A stretch of 63,718 bases of DNA, filler included, from Reclinomonas americana ATCC 50394 (GCA_048213135.1; 6 parts of 6 records of this genome joined end to end with filler, not necessarily neighbours in it); one strand, 5' to 3'; shown: positions 1,838-60,471, counted from the first letter of the whole stretch. The notes: a model not told the origin generated them from the sequence alone. A program made the numbers and translations.

Positions 1838-3175
1838 ATGGCAGGCATGGAACGACGATTGCAGCGTTGCGTATGCATACCTCACACTCTCAACACACAC
1901 TCTCACCACACACTGCTGCACACACCAGCTTTTCTCTGCCTCACTCACTTACATCCTCTCTCTCTTTTTGTGCTCACACTGCAGGCGAGATCAAGCAGCT
2001 GCTTGAGAGTTGCGTCCGTGTCTCGCTCTTGCCCTCTCCCTGCGTTGTGCTATTTTCCGGGAGATCGAACGCAGCCATGCTCATATTAGATTTTTTTCGT
2101 GTGTTGTGCAGCTCCTGTGGATGGCATGGTGGTAAGACCGTCGGAGGAGAACTTCCGCTACTTGCAGGTGGAGCTGATGGGTCCCGTGGACAGCCCGTTT
2201 GGTGCGTGTTTTCATTTTGGTTGATCTGTGCTCAAGTTTGAGTGTCGCACTCACTGTTTGGTGCTGCTGCTGCAGAGGGTGCGTGTTGCTGGGTGTTCAT
2301 TTTCAGCACCGGCTATGATGATGATGTTCATGTGTGCACAGGCGGAAAGTTCCACCTGGAGTTGTTCTTGCAAGATGGGTACCCACTGGACCCACCGAAG
2401 GTGTGCTGCAGCATGTACCCAACAGTGTGGAGCATTCTGTGATGCTCACCACGCCATTTCTGTCGCAGGTCCGCTTCCTGACCAAGATCTATCACGTGCG
2501 TCGACTGTGCACGCGTGTGTGTGTGCTGGCTTGAGTGTTGTGCTCACTTGTGCGCGTTGTTTGTTCCCGATAGCCAAATGTCGACCGTGTCGGTGAGTCG
2601 TGCATCAATCATGCGTGTGTGTCGTGGATATGCATTGATTCTGATCTGCGTCGTGATGGTAGGACGCATCTGCCTGGACATCCTGAAGGTTGCTTGCGCT
2701 GGAAGTCTTGCTGACAAGCGTCGTGCGTTGTTGCTCATTGTTGCTCTCGTGTTTTTTCTTTGAAACCTCCTCCAACAACAGGATCGGTAAGACGAGTCGC
2801 TCTCTCTTTTCTCTGCATTGTGGGAACACGAACTCTCACACTCTTTCCTTGCTTGATTTTCACATTAGCTGGTCACCCGCTCTGACTGTCAGCACGGTGT
2901 GTGTGTGTGTTTTGCGAGTGGATGTGCCTGTGAAGCGCAGCTGCTGATCGGTGGTGTTTCCATGCAGGTGTTGCTCTCCATTCAGGCACTGATGAGCGCC
3001 CCCAATCCGGACGACCCACTGGTCAGTGCCATGCGCTTCTGTCTCTCTCCTTCTCGTCGTCCCCCTCATCCTTCCTCACACTCCTCAGGACAACACAATC
3101 GCCGACATGTGGATCCACCGTGAGCAAGAAGCGCTGCGCCTTGCGCGCGAGTGGACCCGGTTGTATGCCATGTAA
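1838..3175 (+). CDS. UBC13: Ubiquitin-conjugating enzyme E2, Ubc13/UBE2N-like, copy 1 (12 exons)
   Basis: Spliced product [98 protein letters not shown] motif and catalytic Cys intact. Confidence 0.9.
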
Positions 3176-3318
3176 TCTGCCACTCGACGCCCCACCGTGT
3201 GACAAAAGTAAACTCTCGATCGTCACTCGCACACCTCTCCCCTCGCGATGAAGGAAAAAATACCGATGAGAAATTACGTCAGTCACCAGTCTCTTCCGTG
3301 CGACCCAGGAGAGCAGCC

Positions 3319-4481
3319 ATGGCGAACATGGGCAGGTAACATTGTTAGAGAGAAGCTCTCCTCACATCTCCCTCCATATCCTCACGCATGGCGACTTGTG
3401 TGCAATGACAGACGTGTTGCAAGGGAGGTGTCGGTGCGTTCAACACCCCCCCCTCTGCACTCACTCACTCACTCACTCAACTCACACTAATGATGCTTTG
3501 CCTCTCTCTGTCTCCATTGCGCAGGATCTGCTGACCCGACCCGAGCCCGGCATGGTTGTGCGTCGCGGATGGGAAGTGAATGATCGGTACTCATCGTCTG
3601 TCTCACTCTCTCTCCTCCCTGCTCCTCGCCTCTCCCTCTCTCTCTCACACGCACTCTCACTGCCACAGATACCTCATTGTCAATCTGGACGGCCCGCCAG
3701 GCACTCCCTACGAGGAGGGTGCGTGTGCATCACTCACTGCTGTTGTCTCTCATACTCTCACCTCACTCACTCGCAGGCACCTTTGTTGTCGAGTTGTTCT
3801 TGCCTGGTTCGTCTCCCTCTCTCTTTCCCTCTCCACCTCTCATGTCGCCGCCACACGCTCACTCACTGATGATTGCAGACGAGTATCCTCTCGGTATTGT
3901 TCTTCTCGTTCTTGCCTCCTTTCCCCTCCCGCTTCTGCCACTGAGCGTTGCGCAACAGTGCCACCTCGCGCGCGGTTCTGCACTCGCATCTACCATCCAA
4001 ACATTGACCGAGTCGGGCGCATCTGCCTCGATCTGCTGAAGGACAAGTGGTGCGAGCTCACTCCCTCCGCTGGCTGCTGTTGGTGTGATAGAGTCCTGAC
4101 GCTTCTCCGTTGCTGAACAGGAGTCCGGCACTGACAATCGAGAAGCTGTTGTTGGCGTTGCAGGCGTTGATGTGGTGCGTGCTCTTTTGGGTTCCTGGCC
4201 GTCGCTCCGTTCTCATTCCTCGTGCGCAGCGATCCGGAGCCCGATGATCCTCTGGTGATTGTATTCTTGAAGGAAGTATGGTTGTTTTGCGCCACCACTC
4301 ACAGCGTGCGCTCGCAGGATACGACCGCGGCCGATCACTGGAAGAGCGATATCGAAGACGCGCATGCCGTTGGTTCGTGTGGGTGTGCTTGGCCTACCGT
4401 GCACACACACGCATTGTCTCCTCACTCGCTGTGTTTTTCACTACACCAGCTCGAGAGTGGACGTCGCGCTTCGCCACCTGA
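3319..4481 (+). CDS. Ubiquitin-conjugating enzyme E2, Ubc13-like, copy 2 (11 exons)
   Basis: Spliced product [86 protein letters not shown]. Confidence 0.88.
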
Positions 4482-4629: not shown

Positions 4630-7600
4630 CTACGGATCGCTGGTGAGATTTCGCGTCGTCATGAGCACTCGTCGCTTCGTCCAGTGGGCGCGGTCGTCGC
4701 AGCGGAGGCGAGCGTAGCCCAGCAACTCTGTGTCGTCGCAGCGAATGTGATAGACCGGGCACAGGTACGCCGTCGCCACATCCGAGTCACGCCGATCAAA
4801 GGACGCCGGTCGAGCCCACAGCTGNNNNNNNNNNNNNNNNNNNNNNNNNNNNNNNNNNNNNNNNNNNNNNNNNNNNNNNNNNNNNNNNNNNNNNNNNNNN
4901 NNNNNNNNNNNNNNNNNNNNNNNNNNNNNNNNNNNNNNNNNNNNNNNNNNNNNNNNNNNNNNNNNNNNNNNNNNNNNNNNNNNNNNNNNNNNNNNNNNNN
5001 NNNNNNNNNNNNNNNNNNNNNNNNNNNNNNNNNNNNNNNNNNNNNNNNNNNNNNNNNNNNNNNNNNNNNNNNNNNNNNNNNNNNNNNNNNNNNNNNNNNN
5101 NNNNNNNNNNNNNNNNNNNNNNNNNNNNNNNNNNNNNNNNNNNNNNNNNNNNNNNNNNNNNNNNNNNNNNNNNNNNNNNNNNNNNNNNNNNNNNNNNNNN
5201 NNNNNNNNNNNNNNNNNNNNNNNNNNNNNNNNNNNNNNNNNNNNNNNNNNNNNNNNNNNNNNNNNNNNNNNNNNNNNNNNNNNNNNNNNNNNNNNNNNNN
5301 NNNNNNNNNNNNNNNNNNNNNNNNNNNNNNNNNNNNNNNNNNNNNNNNNNNNNNNNNNNNNNNNNNNNNNNNNNNNNNNNNNNNNNNNNNNNNNNNNNNN
5401 NNNNNNNNNNNNNNNNNNNNNNNNNGGGCGCCACATCCTGCGCCGTGGTCGGATTGCCGACGTTGAACTCGAGCGTCACGCTCTCCATCGACACGCGATT
5501 CTTGCGCGCGTAGGCCACACGCAAACTGCTCAGCAGCGACGACGGACGCGCCACGTCACCCAGGTTGATGGCTAGCGGCGCACCCGAGGCAGTGTCACTG
5601 GCAAGCCACTCGCGCAGGGCGGCGACACGCCGCAGCACCACTTCGTGCACGAACTGATCGATGGGAGCCGACACGTACATGTCTGCGACACCGCGGCTCC
5701 CGCTGCTGCTGGTACCACTGCTGCCGCAGTGCGCCAGCCACGACGATGGCACACCGGTGCGTGCCAGCAGCGCGTTACGCACCTCGTCAAAGTCCTCACG
5801 AGGCCGGCCACCACGCAGCACATCCAGCACGCCACGCAGACTGCCACCGATACTGTCGAGCAAGTCGTTGCATAGTGTCAGCTCGTCGTGCAGCACCGCG
5901 TTGCAGGGTGTGTGCAGTGTGGCCGGTCGCTCGCGTCGCACCCGCGACAAGTCGAACATAGGTGGCAGGCGCTGCAAGGCGCGCGTCACCGCCGTCGACA
6001 CGCGCTCCGAAGCGGTGAGTGGCAGGCCGGCATCCATCAGTGCGCCAACAGCCACATCATCCAACTGCTGCTCGGTGCCGTCCACGGCATCCACCTCGTT
6101 GCCGCTGCTGGTGCGCTCCAGAGGTCGCAGGTGCGACGGCATGTTGAGTGCCACCAGTACTTGCTCTCGGTCGCGGTTGTAGCGGAGAGGCGCCACCGAG
6201 TCAAACAAGCCACACAGTGCCGGCGGCACGCAGTCGGGAAGGCGACGCACACGTTCCTCCAGCGTCAACTCGTTCACATCAATGGCAATGGCCGCCGTCA
6301 GCGTCTCAGCGGCCGGTCGCACATGAATCAGTCGGTGCACCTCAGTGGCAATGCTGAGGCGGCGCGTGGACGTACGATCGATCGGGAACAGCATGGTGTC
6401 CGGACCGCCGAGGAAACTAGTTTGTACGGCCGGACCGCCTTTGCTGCCTTGTCGCAGCATGCGCGGCAGCGCCGTCGCCCCTTCATCGATGCTTCCGTCG
6501 ATACTGACGCGCAAACGAGTCATTGTGGCGGCGACCTTATCCGGCTCACGGAACACGTCTTCCACTAGCGCAGCCAGCACTAGCTCATCCACATGTGTGC
6601 GCACACGACCGCCTGTGTACGAGAGGATTTTTGTGAGTGAAAACGCGCCGCTGATGAAGGCTTGTACTTCCCAGCAAAACTCACCATAGATGCACTCGGT
6701 GAGCATCTTGCACAGTGTCGGCAGGCACGACTCGTCGGCCGCCGCATTGCGCATCACGCCACGAAGCATCCACAGCGAGTAGTCGACATCGCCGCCGGAG
6801 AACTCGTACCGTGCGCTCCAGCCATGATTGCCGTACTCTCCGCGCTCCAACAGCACCGCGTGCAGCATGGAGAGCAGCACCAGCGTCCGATCCCACAACT
6901 CTCGTCGACTGGTCGACATGTCGCCCATGGTCGGCACAATGGTCTGCGACATGACTTCCCCAGTGGCGAGGCTGCTCAGCAGGCGATCTCGCAGCGTGCG
7001 ATGCGGCTCCCACGCAAACACCACCGCCTCGTCCAACAGCGAGGCGGGAACGCCGGAACACAGCGCACTGTGCATTTTAAAGGGCCTCTGGTTAGTTCCT
7101 TTGGATCTCACTACGAGGTGAAGAAGTGCTCGCAAACCTGGTCAGCCACAGACGGAAGTCGCTATGCACCGGCACGTTGCGATCACGCAGCACGTGTCGC
7201 AGTTCATGCAGCTGTGCTTGCAAGCTGCTCGAGTCCAGCAGATGCAGGCCCTGCAGGACCACCCAGTGGCCCCAGACCATGCTCTGAATCATGGCCGACC
7301 GATCAAAGGAACGGTTCTTGTCGCCCAACGCCACAATGCTCACTCGGTCGCGCATTTGCATCGCCGTGGCCGCATCCAGCAACGCCGACAGCGCATCGTG
7401 CTCGGGACTCGACTGCCACACCAGAATCGGTGTTTCGCGTGTGCTGATGCGCACCAATGGCCGCAAGTCGCTGACATCTTGCGTGTCGGCAAACGCCATA
7501 CCCAACTCGTCGTGCTGCACAGAGGAGACCGTGAGGAGAGGAACTCAAGAGGCTAAGCGACTGCATGCACGCCAACACTCACCAGGTACTCGCGAACAGC

Positions 7601-10600
7601 CGGTTGGAACTGATCCGGCCGCAAGGCGCACACCACCAACAGTCGCGTGAACGAGGTCAGTCGCGGCTCCGGCACAGTCAGCGTCGAATCGTCATCCTCG
7701 CTCTCGACAGGTACATCTTCCTGGATGTGCCGATGGCCGCCGGCGTTTGCGTTGCTTGCGCGGCGTTGTTGTTGCTGGTGAAGCGACGGAACGGCCAGCG
7801 ACATGCGACGCATGTCGACTGCACCAGAATCACGCCGCTGCGACTGCTGCACCGACGGGCGTCGTGAGTCGGTCACAGCCGGCGCAGCTGCCGACGCCAA
7901 CACTGAAGGTCTCCGATCACGCGATTGCTCAGACGCCGGCCGCTCCACAACAATCATAGAGTGGCGGCGAGCAGGATCTTCCTCCGATGCACGTCTCTCC
8001 GTGGCCAGCGACCGCAGTGGCTGTGTGCTACTGCTGTCGGCGGTGGCGACTGATGGCCGCCGACTTGGGTCTGACGGCCGTCGTTGAGAGTCGGCAGTCA
8101 GCGGCGACGACAGACGACCGTCCAGTGATCCTCGGCCGAGGCCTTGCGACGCCGGCCGTCCTTCCGACTGCTGCCGAGCGAGTCCACTGTCACGCGGCGA
8201 CTGATTGGAGGTTGACTCTGTGCGCGAGCGGTACGGCGTTTCGCGTGGCGCGAGGCGATCGCGCGCCGGCACCACCGATTTCGGGTCGACCTTGGGAATG
8301 GCCCACGCCATGCCCGGCAGGGGCCACAGTGCCGACTCGGCGTGGTCGTGCCACTCCTCCCACTCGTTTGAGCTCTTGTGAATGGCAGAAATCAGATCCA
8401 CCGTGTTGGTGGCCACGCAAACGCGCAAGAGTCGCTGCCAGCGTCTCTCATCAAGCCAGTGTGGCGCCGTGCGGCAGGCCTCCGGCACCGCGGTCAAGTG
8501 CTCGTCCAGATCGCGACCGGCGGCCTCAAACGGATCGAGCAGCAGTCGCCATTCGGCCGTTGTGATCCACCCGGACGCGAGCTGCATCTTGCTGCACATG
8601 AGCAGGCCGAAAGCTAGTCGCTCACGCGAGAACAAAGAGCGCGAGGCGGCACGATACAGAGAAGCGTTGAACTCCTGCTGCACCTGCAACTTCCACTGCT
8701 CCAGTGCACGTTCTTCCCACTGGTTGAAGGCGGCAACGGCCGCCGCCTGCAGTCGCTCTGTCGCCTCCTCATCAATCTCACCAGTGACCGAGTCGTACAC
8801 CTCGCTGCCGTCGTCGCTTTCACCATCGAAACACGCAGCGCTATTGACGCCGTGTGGCGACAGCGACGGCCTGGCCAGCGCGACGGTCTCCTCCAGCGAC
8901 AAGCCCAGGAACGAAGATGGCTCCGGGAACTTGACGCGATCCAGAGCCTGCTCAAAGAGACCGCGCAACCACTTGCCGGAGTATGCCGTGGTTGCCAGCC
9001 GATGCGCCGTCAACCCACGCAGTAGGAGGAAGCAAGTCACGGCACCGTCGGCCAAACTCTGGTATCGTGCTCGGCGAGCCACCAATACTTGTCGCTGTCG
9101 TTCCAGCTCGGGCAAGTGCACGGCAAGACGGCGGGCCCGCTCGCGACAAGACTCCAAGTGCATCAGCAGCTCATCGCTGTCGACGAGAGCATCCATGTCG
9201 GTGTTCGCCACTGCCGTGACCACGGCGATTTCGTTTTCTTCCAGTTCCTTCTTCTCCCTGGTGTGCACCTGCTCGTTGCGCAGACATTTCGCCTCCAACT
9301 CGGCATCTGTGTGCATATGCACCAGACACACAATTCAGTGACTGCTTCTTATAGATGGAGAAAAGTGCACGAACCTCGGCGAATGGCCACATCGGCGCGG
9401 AGGCGATCGCGGAGTGACTCAACCGTCGGTGTAAAGTTGATGAGGTTGACGTATGCTGTCGAGTAGTCAATCTGGCGCACGAGCACGATGAGACACAGAC
9501 AAAAGGAGCACGACAAAAAATGGACAGTAGTGCGAATAAGTGTCACCGACCTTGCTTGGCGGTGAGTGCCGGCGAGTGATGATGAACAGACGGAAGTCTG
9601 GATGAGGATCCACGGGACCATCCGGCAGCACCAGGGGACCAGTCTCGTGCACTTGTTGCCACTTTGTGTTCATGTGCCGAGTGAAGACTGTTAGCAACCA
9701 ACAGACCAAGCTGCACGGCTGCGTCGACTCACCGGTCGCTGCACCAGTCGGAAGAGGTACGACGACAGCTCCTCGCCCACTTGGACAATCAGAGTGGTTC
9801 CGTTGACCACGGCATTGTTCACATGCTGCGCAATCGAGTCCTCCAAGTCGAGCACCATTGATGCGGCTGGTGACATGGCCTGAATCCACTGCTGGCAGTT
9901 CATTTCCGGATCTGCAATGCCACAAAATGTGAGTCGTGGCCGAGGAAACAAGATGCACTGTGACACGACCAACCAATGATAAGAGGCCAGGTACATGACT
10001 GGCGCTCAACGATGCACGTGATGATCCCGCTCTCCGTGTTGGAATCATCGATGAGCACATTCTTGGCGTGCCACTGCGCAATCTCTTGCGGCTGCGTTCG
10101 AATGATTGTCAAAGTGAGAGGAATGCAACACTCCACAGCGAACAAAGTCGCGACACGGACGCAACGTCTCCAATGGCGGCGATCAGATTGAACGATCCCG
10201 GCTGCAGCTCAAACATGGTCTCCCATCGCCCGATGATACGTTTGCGGAACTCAATAGGCATCGGGGCGCCATACACCACCACGCCAGCCGCCATCATTGT
10301 CTTCGCAGTGACCACCAGCATGTCCTTGCGCAGTTGCACCACTTGTGCCTCCCAGCGTACTTGTTCGCGAGTCAGCGATTCTACCAGGGCCTTGGCTTGC
10401 ACGAGTCGACGAACTGCCACTTCCAGCTGCAGACACACATATAGCATGAGAATGACAGTACAAGTGCAAGCATTCCGTGCGACAAAGGACCAACCTGCAG
10501 CTTCATCTCCTCCTGCCTACTCTCCAGCTCGTCGGCCTTAGCCTTCAGCAAGTTGTACTCTCCGGTCACACGCATGCGTGCTGCGTCCTTGGTTGCCAGT

Positions 10601-13600
10601 TCCTCACGCAGCTCAATCAGACGCGCATCAATCTCCTTCAGCAGCGCCTCCTTCGGTTTGAGACTGTCGGTGATGGTGCGGTACTTTTCCGAACTGCTCA
10701 GCCACGAATACAAACGGAAGGCGGCCACACTTGACGACGCCAAGCGCTCTGCACTCATGTCCGGGAGCGAGAGGTAGTGGCGAAGCTGGCGCAGTTGCAG
10801 GTCGGTGAGGTGGCGCGGCTCCATGCTGCGCAGGCGTGTCATAAAGTTGTCGGAGAGCAGTCGGCGACCGGCGGCCCAATAATCCAACACATGACTGCCG
10901 GCACTGGGACCTGCAACGCGGTCTGGCGACACCTCAAACAGCACACAAATGCACTCCATGGTGATCTTGAGGGCCGCCGAGGGAGCCTGAATGATGCGCA
11001 GTTCGGCGATTTCGCGTTTGCTCAGTTGTGAGATGGCCTCCTGTGCGTTGGCCTGCAGACACACACACACAGCGAAGACAAGTTAGTGAGTGAGTGATTG
11101 AACGACTGGAAGAGTGCGAGTGGACCGACCAGCGCAGGATAGGCACGAGACAGTTCGAGTGCACACTCGTCACGCAAGCGTTGCGCACGAATGTTTTCCT
11201 CTTTGGCATTCTCTTCCTCCTCCATGCACTGGCGTTGCGCGGCGTGGGCGGCGGCCAGGCGCTGCGGCAGCTCCTCCATGATACCCGCACTCTGCAGAGA
11301 CACTCAAGTTGTAAACATCATGCGTGGCAAAAGCGTGTGACAAGCGCGCGCGCGACGCACCTGCTCGCGTGCCTGCCCGATCTCGATCTGCAGTCATAGG
11401 TTTAGCACACTGTTGCATCGCGAACGAAGGGAGCATGGAAGACTGCCACACCTGCAGTTGAACTTGTCGGTGCTGCAGGGCATCGACCTGGTCAGTGGCC
11501 TTGAAGAGACACGCGAGTCCTTGCTGCACTGCCATGAGACGCCGCGACACGGACCCGAGGTGTTGCACGAGGAGCGGTTGACTGACGCCGAGGTAGCGAC
11601 CAAAGGTGACGCTGTTCACCACGGACGGCCACGTATCCTTGAACTCCAGCGACATGCGTTCGGCCTCCTGATGCACCTGCACGGCGATGCGCACAATGTC
11701 CTTCATGTCGTCTTCGGAGACCTGTTCAGACTCGCGCAGACTGGCAAATGCATCCTCGGCGAACGCGCGCAGTGGAATCGCTTCGAAGCTGCAAATCACA
11801 CAAGAAGCGTAAGGCATTGGATGGTGCAAGGTATGCAGTGCTGCCGCGTACGCACCGGTACACTGTCGCTGCCGTCACGGTGCTCTGATGATGATGCAAG
11901 TGGGTGGCGAACTTGAAGGCAGTCTGGTCGACGCAGAACATCACGTGGAGGTTGCTGCGCACGCGACGGCGGAAGCATGCGGCGAGTGCACGCGGTCGAA
12001 GAGCTTTTTCGTTTGCAATGTCGGTCCCCGTGAGAATCCCGGCCAGCTGCGCAAGTGCCGCGGACCATTCTTCACGCGAAAAGAGACCTGTGTGCGCACG
12101 AAGCGTGGTGCTCCATTAGCGACAAAACGCACACGACAATACACAGGCCAAGAGGTGACGACAAACCTGCCACCTCGCCACCGTCCATCAACTGAGCCAG
12201 ATCCTCCCAGCAACTCTCACTGGAGAGCTGATCGTCGCCGACAAGAAGCGCCACTTGTTGCGGATGCAACATGGCAGCGCGCAGCACCACAGACCGCAGA
12301 TCGGCGCGCCACGCCGCATAGCTCGAGTCGTGGACCAGCGAGCACGATGGTGGCTCGAACAGTTCACAGTCACTCACAAACGCTGCAGTCGACAACAGGA
12401 GTGATTGAGGTTGCTTATTCAAGGTCTGTATGTGAACAAACACAAATGCGCACCTGCCAAGCGACACAGTGAGCGACGACCGGATCCTCGCTGGCCAATG
12501 ACCAGGGCATGCGAGTGTGGTCGACGCAGCACGCGCTGCAGTCGACACAGGTGCATCACTGTTTCCTCTCGAACAACAATGCGCAGTGGCTCTTCGCTTG
12601 CATGCGTCTATGAAGAAGCGCAGAGATGGTTAGGAACGATCGCCACCGCGCATTGTACTCCACGTTGAGGCACGCAACTCGAGTGTAGTGGTCAATATCG
12701 TGACGCACGCGTTGTGTCAGCGCAGTTGAATCTCGGACTTCACGGTACAGCAGAGCGCCGACCTCGGAACCCTCGCGCTCAAAGGCTGCATTGCGGCGTG
12801 TGAGTGCATGGGAGAGAGAGCTCCGTGGAGAGTGCATGTGCCGCCAGCTTACCGAATAGAACCGGGTCCTCACTACGATACACCGACGTGTCGCTGTCGC
12901 ACTTGGTGCGCAGCGCCGTAAGCACGAGGTCATCCACACGACGGCGATCCGACTCGAACACTCGATCGGCGTACACGCGATACATCTCGTTCAGCCACAC
13001 TCGGAACACATCTTGCGGCTCGCACTGCCGCAAATCCACGGCCACCACACCACGCAACACGTCAGTCAGAGTGCTCATGGTGAACGTGTAGTGTGGTCGC
13101 ACGTCGGTGGGCGGCATACTGCGTCGCAGCTCCTCGTAGACCATAATCGACGTGTTGACAATCTTCTGCATCGCACGGTACACATCGGCGGAGAAGTCAC
13201 GGGCGCACGCTGAGAGCATCTCCAGCAAAATGTGTTGCAGTGTGGTCGTCTGTTCCAGAAGGAAAAATATCTCGGTTAGTATGCTATGCACACCTCCTGA
13301 TCCTTCCAGCCGCCGGTGACGCAACATTCTGCTCTGGTGAATGAATGCACCAGAAGTGGCGTGCGAGCTTGCTTGGCACCGGCACGCGCTCGTCCGCAGC
13401 GCCGACGAAAACCGTGTCCTCCAACTTGAAGAGAGTGCGCGAGCGCGGATGCACGAGCTGCTTGGAGCCAATGGTGCTGCGCAGCAGCTCCAACGGTGCG
13501 TCGCTGGTGGCGGCGTGCACCACCTTGTCCACATCGTCCACGTGCACCACGGCCACCTTGTTGGCAGGTGCACCGAGAGCTCCCGACCTGAGGCGCTGCA

Positions 13601-21529: not shown

Positions 21530-21531
21530 CA

Positions 21532-40616: not shown

Positions 40617-40917
40617 ATGCGCATTTTCCATCTGGTGCCCAAGAGCGAGTGGGACGAATCCGATCGCGCAGTGGCCTTTGCGCCGGCGTGTCTGCACGAT
40701 GTGAGCTTCTGCGCGAGAGAAAGTGAAGGAGTCTGTGAGGATATTCTCATCTCTCTCTGTGTGTGTGCCCGCAGAGCGGGTTCATTCCATGCACGGCCGA
40801 GGCGGATCGACTGCTGACGATTGCCAACTTGTTCTACAGTGGAGAGCGAAGGAATACGCAGTTTGTGGTGTTGTCGATTGACACGGACAAGTTGAGTTGT
40901 TGCTCTTGTCTCTCCTG

Positions 40918-40963
<46 letters not shown>

Positions 40964-41213
40964 GTGCTTGCTCATTGTGCGTTCAGGCTCGGTGTGAAGA
41001 GCCGTGTGACTGAGGAGATCTCGCCGCTGGTCGACGATGGAATGCCGTTCCCGCACATTCATGTTTTGTCCGATCGGATCATTCTGCGTGCTGCGCGCGG
41101 GGTTTCCGTCCATTCTTCCTCATCTCTGCGCACAGGGTCCGATTGATCGCGAGGCGATTGTGGAGGTGCATGATGCTGTGCGCGCTGCCGATGGATCGTT
41201 TGTGCGCGTCTAA
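40617..41213 (+). CDS. DUF952-family protein (4 exons)
   Basis: MRIFHLV..W..GFIPCT..LSIDTDKL..E..FPHIHGPIDREAI, matching the DUF952 pattern. Confidence 0.75.
40919..40961. repeat. (GT)n microsatellite in DUF952 intron
   Basis: Direct reading. Confidence 0.95.
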
Positions 41214-44955: not shown

Positions 44956-45556
44956 ATGCTGCCGGTGGGCGAGGGACTGTTTGTGTTTGAGGGGTGGCTG
45001 ACGCTGCTCAGCGGCATTGTGCTCATGCTGTTTCCCATGTTGCGTCGTCGTTGCCAGTGATAGCCAGAGATATCGCACAGCGTTTATTGTCGTGTTGTTG
45101 TCGGATTCTCCGACTTGTCTCCACGCCACAACGAATGTGTGTCGCTCTCACAGAACTTCGCTGAGTCTGATGGGTGTGGAGCGCCCCGAGGCGCAGAACA
45201 TGGCCGTCGGCATTCTGCGCTGGTTCGGCTGCTTGTGCATTCTCATTGGGTGGGCCGAGATTCGCTCACCGACCAACACCGGCCTCTACGAGGCCCTCCT
45301 TGCGGGAGAAGTGCTGTACACGCTGGTGTACTTTGCCTTTATCCAGGTGCGTGCGTGGGGCATGGGGGGAAGCCGCAGTCGTCCACCAACACCACCACCA
45401 CTGTCGCCAACGCGCCGACATCGACCGGTGAATGCATAGCGACACGGACGGTGGAACCCTGTGACATTGACATTGCTCTCTGCGCCGTTTCTCATGGCCC
45501 CGTTCCGCATTTCGTGGTTGTGGAAGTTGAAGAGCAGCTCGCCGAGCGCCGAGTGA
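44956..45556 (+). CDS. Small multi-pass membrane protein, unknown function (3 exons)
   Basis: Spliced ORF MLPVGEGLFVFEGWLTLLSGIVLMLFP..ILRWFGCLCILIGW..YEALLAGEVLYTLVYFAFI.. with about four hydrophobic segments. Confidence 0.6.
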
Positions 45557-50179: not shown

Positions 50180-52728
50180 GCGGTGAGTGTGCTGACGGAG
50201 CTCATTGACGAGGCGTGTCGCGAGGTTGCCTTGCAGTGTCACAAGGCGAGTCGATTAGGCACGCTGGACTCGTCGCCAACCGCAGCGCCGCTCATGAATG
50301 GAGGAAACGACAGTGCAGTTCCGTCAACCCTTGCGCACACACACTTGACCCTCTTTGTGTCTGTACTCATGACACACGCGCGCGCGCTCTGCGACAGACT
50401 ACTGTGTCGTCGATGGAAGTGGAAGATGCCTCCAATGGAGTTGTCTCTGTGGTGGGCGAAGAGGGCGACGACAAAGATGACGATGATGATGATGATGATG
50501 ATGATGATGCGGCGGTGTCGCGGCATCGCGCGAACGGTGTTGTCGCGGAGTCGGGTTCGCGTGCGGGCGCGCTGGCAGTGAGCTATCCGAGTCGGCAGGC
50601 GCTGGCCAGGCGGAAGGCGCGAGAGAATGCAGTCAATCGCACGCTGTTGTTGAGGTGTGCTGCGCTGTTGCTATCGTCGGCCTCGCAACTGATTCGCGCG
50701 TGACAAGTAAGTGTGTGTGTGCGTGTGCACAGACATCCGCTGGCTGTGTGGCAGCATGAGAATGAAGTGACGACTGCGGCAGCAGCCGCGGCAGCAGCAG
50801 CAGCGGCGGCGGAGGCGGCGGCGACGGCGGCCGCAGCAGCAGCGACTCTTGCAGCGGAAGAGATGCCAGGTGCGGTTGTCGACGAAGCTTCTGTAGATGT
50901 GGTGATGCCGCTGGTGTTGGGACCACCGGCGCCGCCGACGCGAGGTCGTCCGAAAGGGCGACCGCGAACTCGTGGTCGTGGCGCTGCAAATGTGGCTCAG
51001 CCGCGTGGTCGTGGCCGCAAGCGTGGTGGTGCTGCTGCTGGTGGTGGCGCAGGTGGTGGATTGTTTGTCGGTGCCGACATGATGGAAGTGGCGACGGCAG
51101 CCGCGCCCATGGATGGCACGGCGAGTGTGAAACGGAAAAAGGCTGTACAATGGTTGTCGTCTGATGAAGAGTCGGCAAGTGGTGCTGCAGAGGAGGCCGC
51201 GTTGCGTTTCCGTTCGTGTGGCGCGCGCAGCGTGTGAAGGCGCTGACATTTGTCTATTGTGTCGTGCAGCAAATCAAACACGGTGACGTGCCCAGTGTGT
51301 AACCGGGCAGTCAGCGCGCTGCGCTTTGCGCCGCATCTCGAAAAGTGCTTGGCCGGCGGCGGCCGGCAGTCGAGCCGAAGAGCTGCCGCGCGGTGAGCAC
51401 AATAATTGCATGGCCCCTTTGCGTGCATTATGTGTGTGTCGCTCATCCATTATGTGACGCAGGTTATCCGAGTTGGCGCGTCGCAATCGGGAGCCATCGC
51501 CGACGCTGGATGCAGAAATGATGGCGGTGGTGGACGACGGAGAGTTCATGCTGGAGGATCGCTCCACTCCAGCGCCGCCTCCACCACCACCACCAATGCC
51601 ACCTGCTGCTGCTGCTGCTGCTGTGCGTGCTCGCCCGGCTCGCACCTCGGCGGCGCCACAACGGCAGTACGAGTACGTGGACGACTATGATGATGACGAA
51701 CCGATCTCGTCGTCGCCGGTGGACCCCGACAACGACGACGATGTGGTGGAGGTGGGCGCGTGGCCGTCGTCGATTGCACACCGGCATCGAGCGCCAGGAA
51801 TGGTCTCTGCTGTCACCACCACCACAACAACAACGACGACGACGACGACTGCGATGGCAGCGTCTGTGGCAGCATCGCCAGCAATGGTGCCACCTGTGGC
51901 CTCTGCGGCTCCTGGGCAGGGACGGAGCATTTTGCGACTGCGAGTCGTGTCGTCTTCGGCGCAAGCAGCGTCAGCAACCGCGCACGACAACAGTGACGAC
52001 GATCTTGACGAGGATGAGGATGAGGACGATGAAGAGGACGACGGCGACGAAGATGAGGACGAGGAAGAGGACGATGGAGGAGATGAGGAAGTGGACGAAG
52101 AGGAAGACGACGATGGCGAGGACGACGGGTATAATGGTGGCGTAGGTGGCGGCGGCGGCAGTGGTGGTGGTGGCGGTGGTGGTGGTGGTGGTGGCAGTGA
52201 GGGTCACAGGAATCGGGGCCACAATGGCAACACCGGGTACGAACAGTACGACGACGAAGAGGAGGAGGATGAGGAGGCGAGCGATGGTGGCCACCGGAAT
52301 GGCGGAGGTGGCCACGGAGGGCGTCAGCGACATCACCGACTGTCACATATTATTAACGGAGGAGACGGTCAGTTGATGGTGGCGTCGGTCGACATTGTGC
52401 ATGAGAGCGACGGCGAGCATGGTGAGCTTGCTTCCGATAGGTGTCGCGCTGTCTACCCTGCATCTCACACTTTTCTTTGGTTTTCGTGTTGCGCAGCCGA
52501 CAAGTATCATGCGAGGAAGCGTGCACGAGAGGGTCTGTCTGCTTGCCATTGTGTTGCTGATGATGCGTGAGGCTCACAAGCTGTGGCAATGTGTGCGCAG
52601 ATGGCGGTGCGAAGGGAGAAATGGACGACGAGCGGTGGCAGTGGAGGAAAAGGAAGGTGTGCAGGGCGCCCTCGCGCTCTCTCTCGCCAAACATCATCCG
52701 CTACAATGAAACAAGCATTCTACGGTAA
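50180..52728 (+). CDS. SGF11: SAGA deubiquitinase-module subunit Sgf11/ATXN7L3-like, with large low-complexity insertions; start and end uncertain
   Basis: N-terminal helix VLTELIDEACREVALQCHK and zinc finger VTCPVCNRAVSALRFAPHLEKCLAGGGRQSSRRAAAR. Confidence 0.85.
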
Positions 52729-55217
52729 TGGGGGTCGCGAAGACGGCGGCAGAGGTCGCAGGCCGTAATCCAGCGAATTTCCACGCAGCGAGTCCGTGCC
52801 GAGTGAGTGCGACAGAGAGGAGGGATGCAGAAGGTCGGGTGTGCCAACGGTCAGCGACTGCGGACCGTGCGACGACGAGGAGGCGGCGGTGGTCGGCGAT
52901 GCCATGGTGTCGGCGTCGCTGAAGAGATGCTCCACATCGCTCGGCGCGACATCCTCGCTGACGTCGAACAGGGATCGGCAGTGCTTCTACGTAGAGAGAG
53001 GAGAGAGAAAGAGTGAGAAGCGTGAGAGAGAAAGAGAGAGAGAGAACAACAGTGCAGACGAACCACCACTTGCTGGTAGATTTTGCGCAAGTGCTGACTG
53101 GCGCCGGCAAAGAACGAGAACAATATCAGCAGTGACTGCAACGAAGCAGTGTCAGCGGCAGCGTCGCACGAACAGCAGCAGCAGCACACAGCGCACCTGA
53201 TCGGCCTCGCACACCCGCAACGAGAATTTGAGCGAGGTCGACGGAAAAAAGCACTTCCAACCTGTCACGCACGAGTCAGCACACGGCAAAGGCAAAGACA
53301 CGCTCAATGTACGTGTGTGTGTGTGTGCACACGGACCTGCCAGTGCGCCGGTAGGCGTCCGTCGCCGCCGGCAGTGAACACCGAAACTCGACAACTCCTG
53401 CAGAATGAATGCCTCGCCGTGCTCCAGTGTGTACGGAACGCCCGGTTTTTCTCGTATTCTCATCTGCACGACACACAAGCAGGGGGTGAGGAAGGTGGGA
53501 GACGGAGGAGGGGGCAAAAGTAAAAAAAAAAAAAAAAGTAAAGATGAGAGCAGCCGGATTCGAACCGACGAATGCTGGAACCTAACTCCAGTGCGTTAAA
53601 CCACTTCGCCACGCTCTCAGGCACCAAACAACCAGCGAGACTTTCCCCATGGCTATTCTGCCCACCACCGCGTAATCTCTTCTCACTTCCTGTGCACCCA
53701 CGCAGCCTGGCGTCCGCACCAACACCTCTTTCCCCTCTCTCCCACGCCTACACACATGCCTGCGGACGTGCATTTGGACAATCCCGTCCGGTTTCTGCGT
53801 CTAAAAAGAATGTGCATGCAGTGTTGCCACGAGAGAGGGCGAGAAGGTGGGAGGGGCGTCGAGGAGATAGAAAGAAAGAATGGTAGAAATGAACAATAAG
53901 GGCAATTCTGACACATGAAGGGCGGAACACAGATATCGAGACAAGTCCATTTCTGGGCACACCCAGGNNNNNNNNNNNNNNNNNNNNNNNNNNNNNNNNN
54001 NNNNNNNNNNNNNNNNNNNNNNNNNNNNNNNNNNNNNNNNNNNNNNNNNNNNNNNNNNNNNNNNNNNNNNNNNNNNNNNNNNNNNNNNNNNNNNNNNNNN
54101 NNNNNNNNNNNNNNNNNNNNNNNNNNNNNNNNNNNNNNNNNNNNNNNNNNNNNNNNNNNNNNNNNNNNNNNNNNNNNNNNNNNNNNNNNNNNNNNNNNNN
54201 NNNNNNNNNNNNNNNNNNNNNNNNNNNNNNNNNNNNNNNNNNNNNNNNNNNNNNNNNNNNNNNNNNNNNNNNNNNNNNNNNNNNNNNNNNNNNNNNNNNN
54301 NNNNNNNNNNNNNNNNNNNNNNNNNNNNNNNNNNNNNNNNNNNNNNNNNNNNNNNNNNNNNNNNNNNNNNNNNNNNNNNNNNNNNNNNNNNNNNNNNNNN
54401 NNNNNNNNNNNNNNNNNNNNNNNNNNNNNNNNNNNNNNNNNNNNNNNNNNNNNNNNNNNNNNNNNNNNNNNNNNNNNNNNNNNNNNNNNNNNNNNNNNNN
54501 NNNNNNNNNNNNNNNNNNNNNNNNNNNNNNNNNNNNNNNNNNNNNNNNNNNNNNNNNNNNNNNNNNNNNNNNNNNNNNNNNNNNNNNNNNNNNNNNNNNN
54601 NNNNNNNNNNNNNNNNNNNNNNNNNNNNNNNNNNNNNNNNNNNNNNNNNNNNNNNNNNNNNNNNNNNNNNNNNNNNNNNNNNNNNNNNNNNNNNNNNNNN
54701 NNNNNNNNNNNNNNNNNNNNNNNNNNNNNNNNNNNNNNNNNNNNNNNNNNNNNNNNNNNCACACAGAGACATGCAATCAGAAGCTGCAGACAAACGCACA
54801 CAGCCCCACGCGATCGGAAACGCAAAAGAAAAAAGAAAAGACAAGCAAGCATCGTCGGGTGTGAGCCCACCAAAAAAAGTGAATGACAAGTGGGCCCACC
54901 CGCGAGTCGAACGCGGCTCCCTTCCGTCCAAGGGAAGAATTCTACCGATAAACTAGCAGGCCATCACTGTGTTCTCCCACTCACCACGTACTGCGCCAGC
55001 GTTGGCGCTGCTGCGGTCCGCGCATCCACGCGTGCTGGCACACCTGGCGCGAAGAGTAGCGAGTCTCCGCATCCACACACAGCATGTGCCCGACCAGATC
55101 GTGCAGCTCGGTCGACACGCGGTCCGGCAGCTCAAAGCGCGCACGCATAATCATGTCGCGCACCTCTGCACACCACGTGAGTGAGGCCACACACATGCCA
55201 TCACAGGTATCGGTGAC
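52720..55217 (-). CDS. CAMKL (MARK/AMPK-like) kinase, 3' part with KA1-like C-terminal domain
   Basis: Kinase C-lobe end FELPDRVSTELHDLVGHMLCVDAETRYSSRQVCQHAW (54990-55165); KA1-like LKFSLRVCEADQSLLILFSFFAGASQHLRKIYQQV (53065-53262); linkage across the gap is inferred. Confidence 0.6.
53522..53537 (-). terminator. Pol III oligo-T terminator of tRNA-Leu
   Basis: T16 run a few nt after the discriminator base on the - strand. Confidence 0.7.
53545..53618 (-). tRNA. tRNA-Leu(TAG), 74 nt, short variable loop
   Basis: GAGAGCG TG GCG AAGTGGTTTAA CGC A CTGGA GT-TAG-GT TCCAG CATTC GTCGG TTCGAAT CCGGC TGCTCTC A; all stems pair; followed by a long T run. Confidence 0.88.
54892..54962 (-). tRNA. tRNA-Pro(TGG), 71 nt
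   Basis: GGCCTGC TA GTTT ATCGGTA GAAT T CTTCC CT-TGG-AC GGAAG GGAG CCGCG TTCGACT CGCGG GTGGGCC C; T7 run at 54872-54878. Confidence 0.88.
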
Positions 55218-55317: not shown

Positions 55318-57459
55318 AGCAGCGCAAGAACAAGGAGCGCAGTCGAGCCTCTGCTTCTGCCTCTCCGTCGCCCCACCTCAGCGGCAGTCGATCGGCGTCG
55401 TTGCCACTGCGCAGCCCGTCCACGCCCATGATGTTTGATAGCAGCACAGTGGAGGGACAGCCGGCGGAGTCGATTGAGGACTTGGTGCGGCGACAGATAC
55501 AGACGGAGATGCAGGCGCATTTCGATGCAGAGATTGTCAAAACGGCGGCGGGCCGTGCGGCGTTTACGGCGTGGTTGTTTAAGCTGGCCGACACGCATCG
55601 GCGAGGGGAGGTGACGGTGGGCGAGCTGCGACCGGTGTTGCATGCGGCGCACAATGATGGGATTCGTCTCGAGCAGCTCTTGTACGATGTCGATGGAAGT
55701 GAGTCGACAACGACAACGACGACTACGGCGGGCACAACGCTGCGACTCGTGTTGCCGACTGCCTCGCGCCTGTCAGCCTCGCCAACTGTGTCGCCGTCAC
55801 CGTCGCCGTCGTCCACGGCGGCTGGTGCCACGACGGCAGCTGGTCTGGGCCTGGCGTCATTAGCGTACGTACGCGCTGAGGGTTCCGACGGCAGTGCCTC
55901 GTGTACAACAACAACAGCAGCAACAGCAGCAACGGCGGCGACAGAGTCCGAGGAAGACGGGCTGGTGCGAAGAATATTCGACGAGTTTGACGAGGAGCGG
56001 CGCGGTGTGCTGTGCGAGGCGCAGTTTCGCTCGTTGGCCGGCTTGATTCTGCAAGAGTATCAGAGTGCATATGCTCGCGGGCCGGTGAGTCGATAACTCT
56101 GTGCTTGGTGTGTGTGTGCATGGTTGGTTGAGTTGATGCTGAACTGCGTTGCTGCACGAAATATGCGCGCAGACGCACGAGCGCATTGGCAGGTGGATGA
56201 TTATGCATCCGCTGGGCAGTGGCGCCTACGGTCGCGTGTATTCTGGCTTTGATCCGAACTCGAATCAGTTGTGCGCCATCAAGGCGGTGCGGAAGGGAAC
56301 TGTGGCCGACATGTCACGGCTGGACGTGGAGATCCAGGCGATGAAGTTGCTGCAGCACCCGAATGTTGTACATTTGGAGGAGGTGTTGTCGTCGGAGGAC
56401 AATGTGTATCTGGTGATGGAGATGTGTGGCGGTGGAACGCTGTTCGAGTTGTTGGAGTCGAAAGCTGTGGTGCGTGCGCCCGTGATGCGTTCGTTTATCA
56501 TCCTCTTCTGAGTGTGCAAGTAACACTATTCTGCTTGGCAGTTCTCCGAAGAGGTTGCGCGCTTTTACTTTACGAGAATCATGGATGGGCTGGCGTACTG
56601 CCACGAGCAGGGTGTGGCACATCGCGATTTGCGGCTGGAGAATGTGCTGCTCGACAACCAGGTGTGTGTGTGTGGGGCATTCTTTTCTCTTTATCGGGCA
56701 ACTCAATAATGTGTTTCGCTCACACCGCAGGGCAATGTGAAAATCACGGACTTTGGACAGGCCGGCATCTTCACCAAGGGGTGGGATGTGTTTGGCACAG
56801 ACATGACCAGCTCGATCTTCCACTTGTCGCCGGAGCAGGTGGAGAACCGCTCGTACAGTGGGGAGAAGGTGGATGTGTGGAGTGCCGGTGTCATTCTGTT
56901 TGCGCTGGTGGTCGGCCGGCTGCCGTTCGAGGGTACCGATTTTCGCGGTACGTGCATTTTCCACACACACNNNNNNNNNNNNNNNNNNNNGGGAAGAGGA
57001 ATGAGTCACTCTTATTTCACATCCACGCTTGCAAGATGGGCAATGGCCTTCGACGGTCGTTTGCCGACATTGACAAGAGTTGCGCACACAAAGCACTCGT
57101 AGACAGGCACACACACGCAGACTCAGACGGGCAAGGGCGTGCGTGTGACAAGTGGAGACGACATGCTCACCATCTTCACTCTCTCTCCCTCGCCCGTGCA
57201 CTCCGCACAGAGCTCGATGGGCGACTGGACGTGGAGGAGGTCTCCAGCAGCTCCTGCATCATCGGCCGCACCTGCTCACTGACCACACTCTTCTTTGTTG
57301 CGTCGCGCACAAGAGATTCACAGATCCTCTCTCTCACTCTTTCTCTGTGTCTGTCTCTTGCACAGTTTGACAAGAACAAGGACGGTCTGCTCGACTACGA
57401 CGAGTACGTGGAGCTTGAGCGGTACATTGAGTCGGTGGAGAAGCGCGTGCGCAAGAGTC
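55318..57459 (+). CDS. CAMK-group Ser/Thr kinase with EF-hands before and after the kinase domain (partial)
   Basis: EF-like FKLADTHRRGEVTVGEL, FDEFDEERRGVLCEAQF; LGSGAYGRV, AIK, HRDLRLEN, DFG, DVWSAGV; after a small gap FADIDKKLDGRLDVEE, FDKNKDGLLDYDEY. Confidence 0.82.
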
Positions 57460-57688
57460 NNNNNNNNNNNNNNNNNNNNNNNNNNNNNNNNNNNNNNNNN
57501 NNNTTAATTAATTAANNNNNNNNNNNNNNNNNNNNNNNNNNNNNNNNNNNNNNNNNNNNATACGTCGACAACTGTCTCTCTCCTTCGTCCACACAACTGC
57601 ATTCCCGGTTCACTTTCTTTTTGTTTCCCTCCTTCCTCCAGTCGACACACAAACAACAGCAAAACCCCTTCCATCTCCATCCACGCCC

Positions 57689-60471
57689 TCATTGCAACGA
57701 AGACGGCATCTGCGCCACATCCGCCAGGAAGCTGCACGACTCGAAAAAGTCAGTATCCGCCGCACTCTGCGCCTCCTCTCAGTGGTGCTACTGACCTGAA
57801 TGAATTGTGTACGGTGGTGCCGCCCAGCACAAAGACGTGCTCGCCTCCGTGCAGCTCGTTCAGCTTGCGCACCGACAGCGCCTCCTCGTACGTGGCACCG
57901 CCAATCATAAAGATGATGATGTCTTGCGGCTTGTACGTCTGTGGCTGCGGAGTGCGGGCGTACGGCCAGTCGACCTCCTTCAGCGCGCCTCTTGCAGCGT
58001 CGTTCAACAGAGTTGTCAGCAGCGGCTCGTGCTGCGTGTAAATGCTATCCGAGCCCTGTGCTCACACGTCAGCGCCGCAACACACACTAGGCACGGCATG
58101 CGCCACAAGAGACAGCAGCACCTTCAGGCTCTGCGGCTTCTTCTTCACGGCTCCGACCAGCGCCGACAACACACTCGTCGCTGTCGTTGGTGAGCCGCCC
58201 ACCACCAAGTCGGGTGAGCACTCGCGACTGGCACCATACTGCAGCATCGACGGCACCAGCTCCAACATGGCACGATCGAGTCCCCGATCGCCCAACACGC
58301 GCATAAAGTCCGACAGCCGACGAGCCTCCCGCCCGTAGCGCAGCGCGTACAGCATGACCACACGCAAGCAGTCGCGCGCCTGCACGCCCCGATTTGCCAA
58401 CACACGCTCCACTCCCTGCGAAGCAACAACAACAAGTAGAAGTGTCAGCAAAGGAGGGAGACAGAGCACACGAGACAATCGCGAAAGTAGCACCTGTACC
58501 GCATCACCGTGATTGGATTTGGTGGCCAGCTCCTGCTCCACCTCGGACACCAACAGCAGCTGGCGTTCTGTGATGATATCCGACATTTGCTGAATGACGG
58601 TGAGGTGCTTCTCCACACTGCCGCTCAGCTCGGCCAACTCCGGATATGAATGCAAGAATTCACGCATGTCCTCTGTAGCCGCACGTCAGCCATGCGGGGT
58701 GGGAGATTGAAGAGGGGAATGTGCGTGTGCGAGCGCAACTAAAGTCCCTAATGTCATCTCGGCGTGGTGTCTTGGACTTCAACACGTTGCCGAGTGCTGT
58801 CACATTCTCTGTCAAGTCGGCGTAGTTGTTGAACATGTTCTCCGAGTAAAAGTGATCCTGCTTCGGTGACAAGACAATCTCTTGCCTCTGTCCGTCCACT
58901 CTTGTCTTCACCACATTGTTCGTGATGCCGATCAATTCGTGCACCATGGCCTGCATTCACACAATGATATGTGAGGACAGCGGCAAGCAGCGCCTCGATG
59001 CGAGAAAAGATAGGGAGGGTGGCGAAACTTGATACGTCCATTGCGTGAGCAGGGGTGTGATTGAGTCGAACCGCCGATCCACAATCAGCAGCAGCGGTGG
59101 CTCCGAGCGCCGACCAAAGTCGAACAACACATTCTCTGCCCTCATGCGAGCCTACACCCCACCGCAGAAGGTGAGCCGCCGGGTGTCGCTGTGTGCCAGA
59201 AGTAGGAAGAAGCAGCAGATGCAGCGCAACATTCATCTCCTGCGCCAGCGTCTTGGCGAGATCAGAGCTGCCCTGGTACCGAATCGTGGGTGCCTTTTTC
59301 AGCGCCAGCAACACGGCCGCCAATCCATCTGCGCAGCATCATCAACAAACGGCCGCACACGCACACACCATGCAACGCCACGAACCACATGTCCTCTCAA
59401 ACACTGCATCCTCCCACGATGCACTCGACAGCAGACACGACGTGCTCGGCACATTGATCGAGAACAACTCACGGTTGACGGGGTAAAAGTCGGCGTACAT
59501 CTCCTGCAGCGGCATGCATCANNNNNNNNNNNNNNNNNNNNNNNNNNNNNNNNNNNNNNNNNNNNNNNNNNNNNNNNNNNNNNNNNNNNNNNNNNNNNNN
59601 NNNNNNNNNNNNNNNNNNNNNNNNNNNNNNNNNNNNNGTCTCACTGAGAGACATCGATGTTGTCTCTCTCTCTGCGAGGGAGACGAACCACCACACTGCG
59701 AACACACTCCTTCACATCGGCCTGCGCAAGCTCCTTCAACATGTCGTCGCTGATCAAGTTGGTAAACACTGCAGACTCGTTGATGAGCCACGCGGGGGGA
59801 CACGCACAATGTGTGCAACAGCAAGTCTCACCCAAAGAGTACTCTCCGTACAGCGGATTGCGCAGTTCCTTGCACAAATCGCGCACATTCTCCACCGTCG
59901 GTCGCAACAGACACACGGCCTTGAGGTGCTTCTGCGACGCACGATTCTCCATGCTCAACTTCTCCACCAAGTACACCTCCTCGCGCATCACCTCTGCGAA
60001 ACCGCGAACAAGTGACACAATCGTCATCTGTGCACATGCCACCGAGTGCAAACAGGTGAGCGAGGTGCGTGTGTGAGAGAGAGGCACTGCACAGGCAGAG
60101 AGCGCACACACACACACAAGCAGCAACAACAAGCGCGACATGACTGACATGCCGCACGCTCTCTGTTTGCAACTCGCACACACACACACGCGCGCGCGCG
60201 TAACTGTCTCATCATCGAGCAAGAGGATCTTGACGCCCGACACACTCTCCAGTGCTCTCTGCAGGTACCGATCGACCGCCGCAATGACATTCATGCGATC
60301 GGCGGCCTCTCCAGCCGCCGCCGCTGAGCCCGCCGCTGCACTGCCTCCAGCTGCTGCTGTGGCAGAGGAGCCGGACGCACCTCCTGCGCCTCCCAGGGCG
60401 GTGCCAGAGCCAGAGGCGAGGTTGCCGCGGCTGTTGCCGCCTCCCGCGGGTCCTCCAAGACGACGACTCAT
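57689..60471 (-). CDS. VPS45: Sec1/Munc18-family protein Vps45
   Basis: [98 protein letters not shown]. Confidence 0.95.

Follow-up and report, generated by a model that had tools for sequence, protein, structure and literature searches.

The window analysed in the present study, a stretch of 63,718 bases from a scaffolded eukaryotic assembly (Reclinomonas americana ATCC 50394, GCA_048213135.1), holds 22 modelled genes, including tandem E2 genes, a giant dynein-heavy-chain-like gene, an IP3-receptor-like (IP3R-like) gene, an ABCD transporter gene, a PNGase-like gene, a serine carboxypeptidase gene, a p25-alpha-like gene and a Sec1/Vps45-like gene. The first 4 kb, when read, already proved to carry densely interrupted genes, with introns of ~60-130 nucleotides (nt) and CAG ends. 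Most introns start at 5' splice sites (donors) of a main class with a conserved G at +5. Beside it, introns that begin with GUUGCGU, and a few with GUUUCGU, form a common second U2-type 5'-splice-site class, amounting to roughly 20-24% of the introns of the window.

Genes were modelled with a small, purpose-written generalised hidden Markov model, trained on the window itself and drawing on codon usage, intron length and a matrix for acceptors. The first form (GT-only) admits any GT as a donor, so that no donor motif can be favoured by it, and the second form (donor-aware) has separate learnt donor matrices for donors with T at +3 (+3T donors) and for the others. The main catalogue, taken from the donor-aware form, comprises 199 introns in the 22 genes scoring at least 25. 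Here class I denotes donors that have G at +5 and a base other than T at +3 (n = 114), and class II those with T at +3 and G at +6 (n = 47); the latter divide into 40 GTTGCG donors and 7 others, and the catalogue is completed by 14 remaining +3T donors and 24 of other kinds. The donor counts and class shares are drawn from gene models, which have known errors, and from homology, and since the donor-aware form may inflate the GTTGCG share and some exons are wrong, the class proportions are estimates. Introns with a unique in-phase GT numbered 10, too few to be of use.

The heptamer GTTGCGT is clearly over-represented in the window, with 38 exact matches as compared with 15.15 +/- 3.89 expected from dinucleotide-preserving shuffles, none of 100 of which reached 38, and the strand of the matches agrees with the strand of the local genes. 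As many as 33 of the 38 heptamers are modelled donors. For the hexamer GTTGCG, the donor-aware catalogue divides the 79 occurrences on both strands into 40 donors, 15 sense-strand non-donors, 17 antisense copies and 7 intergenic copies. The GT-only model likewise brought the motif forward: GTTGCG was the top donor hexamer in genes scoring at least 40 (21 of 166 introns), it started 25 of 263 introns after retraining, as against 20 for GTGCGT, and over all predictions it made up 27 of 367 donors, compared with 55 of the 3,731 sense-strand GTs in genes (1.5%; binomial P = 2e-11). In the donor-aware form, genes scoring at least 40 contained 187 introns, 37 with GTTGCG and 31 with GTGCGT, and in the main catalogue the class II share reached 24% (47/199). 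Two heptamers that are not used as donors, one at 13052-13058 (-) inside a 397-nt dynein-like exon and the other at 60566-60572 (-) where no gene is modelled, could be missed introns. The GC-AG version GCTGCGT was tried as well and gave no signal (31 matches, a count attained in 3 of 100 shuffles, vs 23 expected).

Protein homology was brought to bear through a purpose-written protein-to-genome aligner, which allows GT...AG introns only and uses a flat intron penalty and BLOSUM62. For the serine carboxypeptidase gene on the minus strand, 40 homologues were retrieved with one exon as the query (the best 54% identical, none from this genome), and eight full-length ones were aligned to the locus. 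All eight picked the GTTGCGT donors at 39615-39621, 39500-39506, 39050-39056, 38404-38410 and 37785-37791, starting on this strand at 39621, 39506, 39056, 38410 and 37791, together with the GTTTCGT donor at 38593-38599 (start 38599), and likewise all eight picked the ordinary donors at 39212, 38779 and 37968. When the spliced product was compared with two homologues, all of these junctions were gap-free, and they are flanked on both sides by conserved motifs, e.g., KTDP|VVLW..GGPGCSS at the 39506 donor and TYTTI|RDAGHMVP.

For the IP3R-like gene on the plus strand, 150 representatives were retrieved and ten long ones aligned. The GTTGCGT donor at 28027-28033, in the channel region, was chosen by all ten homologues, the GTTGCGC donor at 27797-27803 by six, and the GTTGCGT donors at 27053-27059 and 23672-23678 by five each; ordinary donors in the conserved channel part obtained 8-10 votes of ten. 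Homology support for the class II donors of this gene is thus partial. Furthermore, Pfam profiles run across several donors in the expected manner. Positions 57 and then 61 of ABC_membrane_2 meet at the GTTTCGT donor at 31289-31295 (+) of the ABCD transporter gene, with the residues between accounted for, and the Sec1 profile tiles exactly, 225|226, across the GTTTCGC donor at 59022-59028 (-, start 59028) of the Sec1/Vps45-like gene. Profile positions are also consistent at the GTTGCGT donor at 31924-31930 (+), where the match reaches the last residue of the exon of the ABCD transporter gene, and at two GTTGCGC donors of the Sec1/Vps45-like gene, at 59224-59230 (-, start 59230; Sec1 positions 184 then 194, with 8-9 residues between) and 58733-58739 (-, start 58739). 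Finally, when the protein of the neighbouring E2 paralogue was aligned to the first E2 locus, with GT..AG introns, the GTTGCGT donors of introns 1 and 2 of this UBC13-like gene, at 1866-1872 and 2009-2015 (+), were recovered and the first gene model was corrected. A metagenome scan for a 30-nt stretch of E2 exon returned no match, and a scan for related loci returned one relative, whose 48% identity was too distant for intron comparison.

On this computational support, GUUGCGU donors are very probably genuine intron starts. It could be argued instead that the motif is a by-product of the gene models and that splicing takes place at a neighbouring GT, such as the one at +6/+7, or at other sites. 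The models were indeed built ab initio or with homologues as a guide, and errors are plain in some of them (the E2 exons, the carboxypeptidase N-terminus); at 27053, moreover, the other five of the ten IP3R-like homologues go to the GT at 27058 and join it to three different acceptors. Nevertheless, all eight carboxypeptidase homologues agree on six junctions that are gap-free, the GT-only model points the same way, the 33 heptamers at modelled exon ends are followed by introns of normal length, branch and acceptor, and the downstream GTs have no common consensus, all of which makes a by-product of modelling highly improbable.

The sequence of the class II donors is remarkably strict on the intron side. 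The 40 GTTGCG donors consist of 33 GTTGCGT, six GTTGCGC and one GTTGCGA, and the seven others of three GTTTCGT and one each of GTTTCGC, GTTGAGT, GTTGTGC and GTTTTGT; the 14 +3T donors outside class II have G at +5 or no clear pattern (e.g., four GTTCGT and four GTTTGT). Class I is characterised by G at -1 (79%), +3 (70%) and +5 (81%) and T at +6 (69%), with C41 A27 T23 G6 (%) at +4, and +3T donors by G at +4 (74%), C at +5 (74%), G at +6 (75%) and T at +7 (70%) in the donor-aware model. In the same model, G stands at only 17-36% at +8 to +12 of +3T donors vs 75% at +6; in the GT-only model it reaches 46% at +6, which is the same displacement but weaker. Outside the GT, class II donors carry 8.7 bits of information and class I donors 4.8.

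When the four bases after GT are set against the four after GTT, GCGT is matched evenly (33 and 33) and TCGT nearly so (4 and 3), but GAGT (13 and 1), GTGT (12 and 0), ACGT (4 and 0) and CAGT (4 and 0) are not, with Fisher P = 0.003 for the deficit of GAGT and 0.0009 for that of GTGT. Class II is nearly confined to the GCG core and is not a mirror of the whole donor repertoire. The extra base, moreover, is only ever U. Of the 55 sense-strand copies of GTTGCG in genes, 40 serve as donors, as compared with 0 of 78 for GT[ACG]GCG (GTAGCG 0/3, GTCGCG 0/26, GTGGCG 0/49), and the same contrast in the GT-only model is 27/55 vs 0/78 (P = 3e-13).

These results bear on an earlier note on this DNA, made from the sequence. 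The 15 GTTGCG positions that it listed (1866, 2009, 22386, 23672, 25163, 27053, 27431, 27797, 28027, 31924, 33571, 33864, 34875, 44087 and 51201), as well as GTTGAGT at 40891, are all donors in the intron table, with 27797 reading GTTGCGC and 34875 GTTGCGA; the five GTTGCGT donors that it counted in the carboxypeptidase are those chosen by 8/8 homologues above, and its statement that GTTGCG donors occur in most genes agrees with at least one in 14 of the 22 modelled genes. The note had also arranged the donors in matched pairs differing by one inserted T, of which GTGCGT/GTTGCGT (33/33) and GTTCGT/GTTTCGT (4/3) hold up and GTGAGT/GTTGAGT (13/1) and GTACGT/GTTACG (4/0) do not; the core counts and the Fisher tests leave the last pair unsupported. 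Its central claim, that the conserved G is displaced to +6 in a large share of introns, is borne out by the 47 class II introns, in which G-U lies at +6/+7 after U at +3, and logos split by the base at +3, as it had suggested, give +3T donors that equal the main motif moved by one base, with G enriched at +6.

On the exon side, G at -1 (-1G) occurs in 4/47 class II donors vs 94/114 in class I and 11/14 in +3T donors outside class II (pooled Fisher P = 2e-19). Perfect GTGCGT donors keep -1G in 30/33 cases, so that a strong intron side alone does not abolish the preference. The class II base at -1 is distributed like that at -2 of class I (chi-square P = 0.47), and the one at -2 like that at -3 (P = 0.44); beyond -1, the exon side is probably dominated by coding constraints. 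Three modelled donors, GTACTGT at 46321 (+), GTACTGC at 47288 (+) and GTATTGT at 3894 (+), look like the ordinary motif with an additional A, rather than U, at +3 and, unlike the GTT class, all keep -1G, in a number too small to judge.

In length and 3' features the class II introns resemble the main class. Their median length is 72.5 nt vs 68 nt in class I, 41/47 of them vs 104/114 in class I have a branch-like YTNAY motif 8-45 nt before the 3' end, its median distance is about 16.5-19 nt and ~18 nt, respectively, and the acceptor is YRCAG in both classes. With lengths, branch motifs and acceptors like those of class I, the class II introns are of the ordinary U2 type, and reading frame and homology are restored on removal of six GT-AG introns of class II in the carboxypeptidase gene and one in the IP3R-like gene. 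Across all 199 introns, the acceptor reads Y-R-C-A-G with a purine at -4 (G about 60%, A about 30%), and the commonest branch-like motifs, ~18-19 nt upstream in both classes, are CTCAC, CTCAT and CTGAC, that is, CTCAC/CTCAT rather than CTRAY. Pairing between the two ends of class II introns (-7.17 kcal/mol vs -6.79 +/- 0.25 for permuted partners) was not convincing.

Two other kinds of intron come to mind when a donor class is so uniform. Introns of the minor, U12-type spliceosome also constitute a second, highly conserved donor class beside the main one, but none of the 47 class II donors resembles RTATCCTT, the branch motifs, branch distances and acceptors are as in the main class, and the share of 24% is far higher than U12-type introns are known to reach (in mammals, about 0.36% according to excerpts of PMC4856993); the chance that they are U12-type is close to nil. 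Alternatively, GTTGCGT might be no recognition motif at all and instead an end sequence inherited within one family of mobile introns (introners), in keeping with a motif stereotyped across seven bases and with class II junctions that do not have the G|G look of a proto-splice site. Positions +8 and +9, however, carry ~0 bits of information, blastn comparison of all 199 introns with one another produced short low-complexity matches only, and lengths and 3' ends are as in other introns. With no common sequence beyond +7 and no family-wide similarity, class II introns are not introners, and we attach very little probability to that origin.

How, then, could such donors be recognised? Written without gaps, the two classes are one 8-mer with a single difference, H-G|GUGCGU in class I and H|GUUGCGU in class II, cleavage in class II lying one base upstream; therefore, we propose that U1 small nuclear RNA (snRNA) binds both at the same place. 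In class II, the intron G+1 would then sit on U1 C9 rather than C8, U+2 would lie unpaired opposite C8, U+3 would pair with A7, and G+6 and U+7 would pair with C4 and A3, while cleavage would still occur before the GU, fixed later by U6 and U5. As the mismatch at U+2 would break the helix, the remaining UGCGU would have to be perfect, and the motif would consequently be stereotyped. Such a shifted register would account for the obligatory U at +3, the irrelevance of -1G and the perfect rest of the helix, and in the donors U does stand at +3, the consensus follows exactly one base late and -1G makes no contribution. We regard it as the best mechanism for class II, although, with the register deduced from sequence rules, we would be about as ready to doubt it as to accept it.

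The earlier note had pointed to routine recognition in a bulged register or to a variant U1/U6 snRNA, and its displacement stands. In the bulged register G+1 would sit on C8 and U+2 on A7, one U at +2/+3 would be flipped out, and GCGU would pair one step further on. The class II motif does look like the main motif plus one U, 3/47 sites fold in this way with canonical U1, and pairing of the U6 ACAGA box with G+6/U+7 would need such a bulge anyway, which counts in its favour. Yet a bulge would leave C9 free for -1G, which falls from 94/114 to 4/47, so that the -1G preference expected of it is not retained, so far as pairing can be read from sequence statistics; a flipped-out base need not be U, and A, C and G are found in 0/78; and a general tolerance should mirror the whole repertoire, which the counts of GAGT (13 vs 1) and GTGT (12 vs 0) contradict. 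The displacement would follow from a bulged U with otherwise canonical pairing, but the obligatory U, the -1G loss and the perfect helix would not. Consequently, although experiments in human cells support the bulge +2/+3 register (Table 3 in excerpts of PMC4856993), we consider a plain bulge rather unlikely for class II, and the shifted register fits better.

A further explanation places the novelty in the reader of the 5' splice site. Duplexes were computed with ViennaRNA duplexfold, the canonical U1 5' end being an 11-nt motif with pseudouridines treated as U. Class I donors bound it with a mean of -6.4 kcal/mol, 96/114 of them in the canonical register. The computed binding of class II donors to it is very weak, and this would be understandable if the U1 5' end here were complementary to GCG at its positions 4-6, with G and perhaps C in place of two U1 pseudouridines, or if a second U1 matched GUUGCGU. 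In the altered-U1 version, GGUGCGU would match without fault and GUUGCGU with one mismatch. At the position preceding the conserved G, class I donors have C most often and G least often, and class II donors have C almost invariably (44/47), a ranking that fits a G partner and not the pseudouridine of canonical U1. If this were true, the organism would have departed from the near-universal U1 5' end ACUUACCUG, and behind its two donor classes would stand either a single altered U1 particle or two different ones; a U1 5' end that had truly changed would be a break in one of the most conserved eukaryotic RNA sequences. To our knowledge, that end is conserved almost universally, which speaks against a changed reader. 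A scan of the window against Rfam had one tRNA as its sole match and no snRNA gene. As far as excerpts of PMC2483917 go, Irimia and Roy (2008) raised the same idea for the GTGCGTG consensus of Ostreococcus, but GTGCGT sites exist in Mamiellophyceae, where a screen quoted there found only single-copy snRNAs. All told, we hold a changed reader to be improbable, though worth keeping in view.

Several observations weigh against the picture of a second donor class read by U1 in a shifted register. Every donor depends on gene models and homology, the evidence comes from a single 64-kb window with 22 genes, and the self-trained donor-aware model could inflate GTTGCG, for which the GT-only model gives 27 donors, not 40. 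In the IP3R-like gene, four GTTGCGT donors obtained at most four of the ten votes, namely those at 25163-25169 (four, with varying acceptors), 27431-27437 (four), 22386-22392 (three) and 24757-24763 (two), all on the plus strand; they sit in weakly conserved parts with scattered alternatives. With canonical U1, class II donors reached a mean of only -1.0 kcal/mol and no coherent register, 2/47 folding in the full shift, 3/47 with the bulge and 16/47 with only the distal part (G+6/U+7 onward) paired, so that neither register, with canonical U1, accounts well for the strict motif. The C at +5, present in 44/47, pairs with nothing in canonical U1. Additionally, the class II base at -3 resembles that at -3 of class I and not that at -4. 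And since G precedes GTT within exons in 12.7% of cases, the 4/47 in class II (P = 0.27) reflect a -1G preference that is lost, not avoidance of G.

The shifted register is not without precedent. Roca and Krainer reportedly described, in 2009, human sites of this kind in which the intron starts with GU-U, the consensus comes one base late and G+1 was proposed to lie on C9, with -1G said to be unnecessary and cleavage still at the GU. The likeness to class II lies in the GU-U start, the displaced consensus and the dispensable -1G; the differences are that such sites are a rare curiosity in human and about a fifth of introns here, and that the core is AAGU in human and GCGU here, where the register is deduced from sequence. 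That human cells use shifted as well as bulged U1 registers is established (Tan et al. 2016; excerpts of PMC4856993), and excerpts of a review (PMC9311317) agree in general terms on non-canonical U1 registers in human. The human bulge +2/+3 and +3 registers (reportedly also described by Roca et al. 2012) have one extra U after the GU in common with class II, but they were projected for 68 and 51 of 201,541 sites (excerpts of PMC4856993), as compared with 47/199 introns here, where the donors have lost -1G and take no A, C or G as the extra base.

The main class, for its part, has a counterpart in Mamiellophyceae. Micromonas and Ostreococcus have an AG|GTGCGT(G) donor consensus (excerpts of PMC3879977 and PMC2483917), which is the same G|GTGCGT as in our main class, with C at +4. 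These algae have few canonical introns with a branch point 43-52 nt upstream, whereas introns here are very dense, about 70 nt long and with a branch motif at ~18 nt, and the same excerpts mention no GTTGCGT class. U12-type introns, to come back to them, share with class II the presence of a second strongly conserved donor class beside the main one and differ in donor motif, in the 3' signals, which here are those of the main class, and in a share that is far higher here. A full-text search of a limited literature collection found no description of a GTTGCG/GUUGCG donor class.

Non-canonical U1 registers are mostly known as infrequent exceptions among human genes, and a genome with about one intron in five starting at a strict GUUGCGU would offer a natural system for the choice of the cleavage site with U1 one base out of step. 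Whether the C at +5 is read by U1, by U6 or by proteins could be tested there, and gene finders could be improved; about a quarter of the introns here would escape splice-site models built on a purine at +3 and G at +5.

The remaining class II donors were placed by gene models. On the plus strand, GTTGCGT donors lie at 19326-19332 (gene model only), at 30558-30564 and 30834-30840 in the ABCD transporter gene (gene model only for both), at 33571-33577 and 33864-33870 in the PNGase-like gene, at 44087-44093 and 45039-45045, at 46638-46644 in the p25-alpha-like gene, and at 51201-51207 and 57297-57303. GTTGCGC occurs at 34515-34521 in the PNGase-like gene and at 57079-57085, the single GTTGCGA at 34875-34881 in the PNGase-like gene, a GTTTCGT at 43330-43336, and the sole GTTGAGT at 40891-40897 (gene model and donor count); GTTGTGC at 34606-34612 and GTTTTGT at 41063-41069 are weak members (gene model only). 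On the minus strand, GTTGCGT donors lie at 42896-42902 and 42695-42701, and at 18366-18372, 15826-15832, 13319-13325, 12672-12678 and 10159-10165 in the dynein-heavy-chain-like gene, and a GTTGCGC donor at 20574-20580. The GTTGCGT donor at 40379-40385 (-), with a modelled intron of 382 nt, is uncertain, as homologues do not confirm it.

Some other features of the window's genes deserve mention. In the carboxypeptidase gene, at 39213-39444 (-), we found no GT..AG intron that joins the exon ending ..GGPGCSSLLD in frame to the AFAENGPF exon; the homologues disagree there, with a donor GTAGCTC at 39393 and four different continuations, and the cause may be an unusual intron or, in the C-runs, an assembly indel. 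According to the paralogue-guided alignment, 11 introns interrupt the roughly 450 coding nt of the UBC13-like E2 gene, which also has apparent exons of 3 nt (AGG, 2276-2278, +), which restores the E of the conserved SPFEGG, and of 5 nt (GATCG, 2782-2786, +). The tandem E2 paralogues at 1838-3175 and 3319-4481 (+) have few intron positions in common, the DPL|D junction being shared and the N-terminal introns not, which hints at heavy intron turnover.

The window contains 21 runs of N totalling 4,726 bases. Five blocks of the form N44-TTAATTAATTAA-N44, with stops in all six frames, are artificial contig linkers (21597-21696, 47767-47866, 55218-55317, 57460-57559 and 62016-62115), so that adjoining pieces of the window may not be genomic neighbours and genes are truncated there. 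The tRNA gene matched by Rfam (RF00005, 55.8 bits) lies at 53545-53618 (-), between protein-coding genes. The giant dynein-heavy-chain-like gene at 5426-18468 (-), which is cut by a gap at 4825-5425, has about 39 exons and degenerate P-loop motifs, and a long Ser/Arg/Pro-rich insert is found within its exon at 7583-9306.

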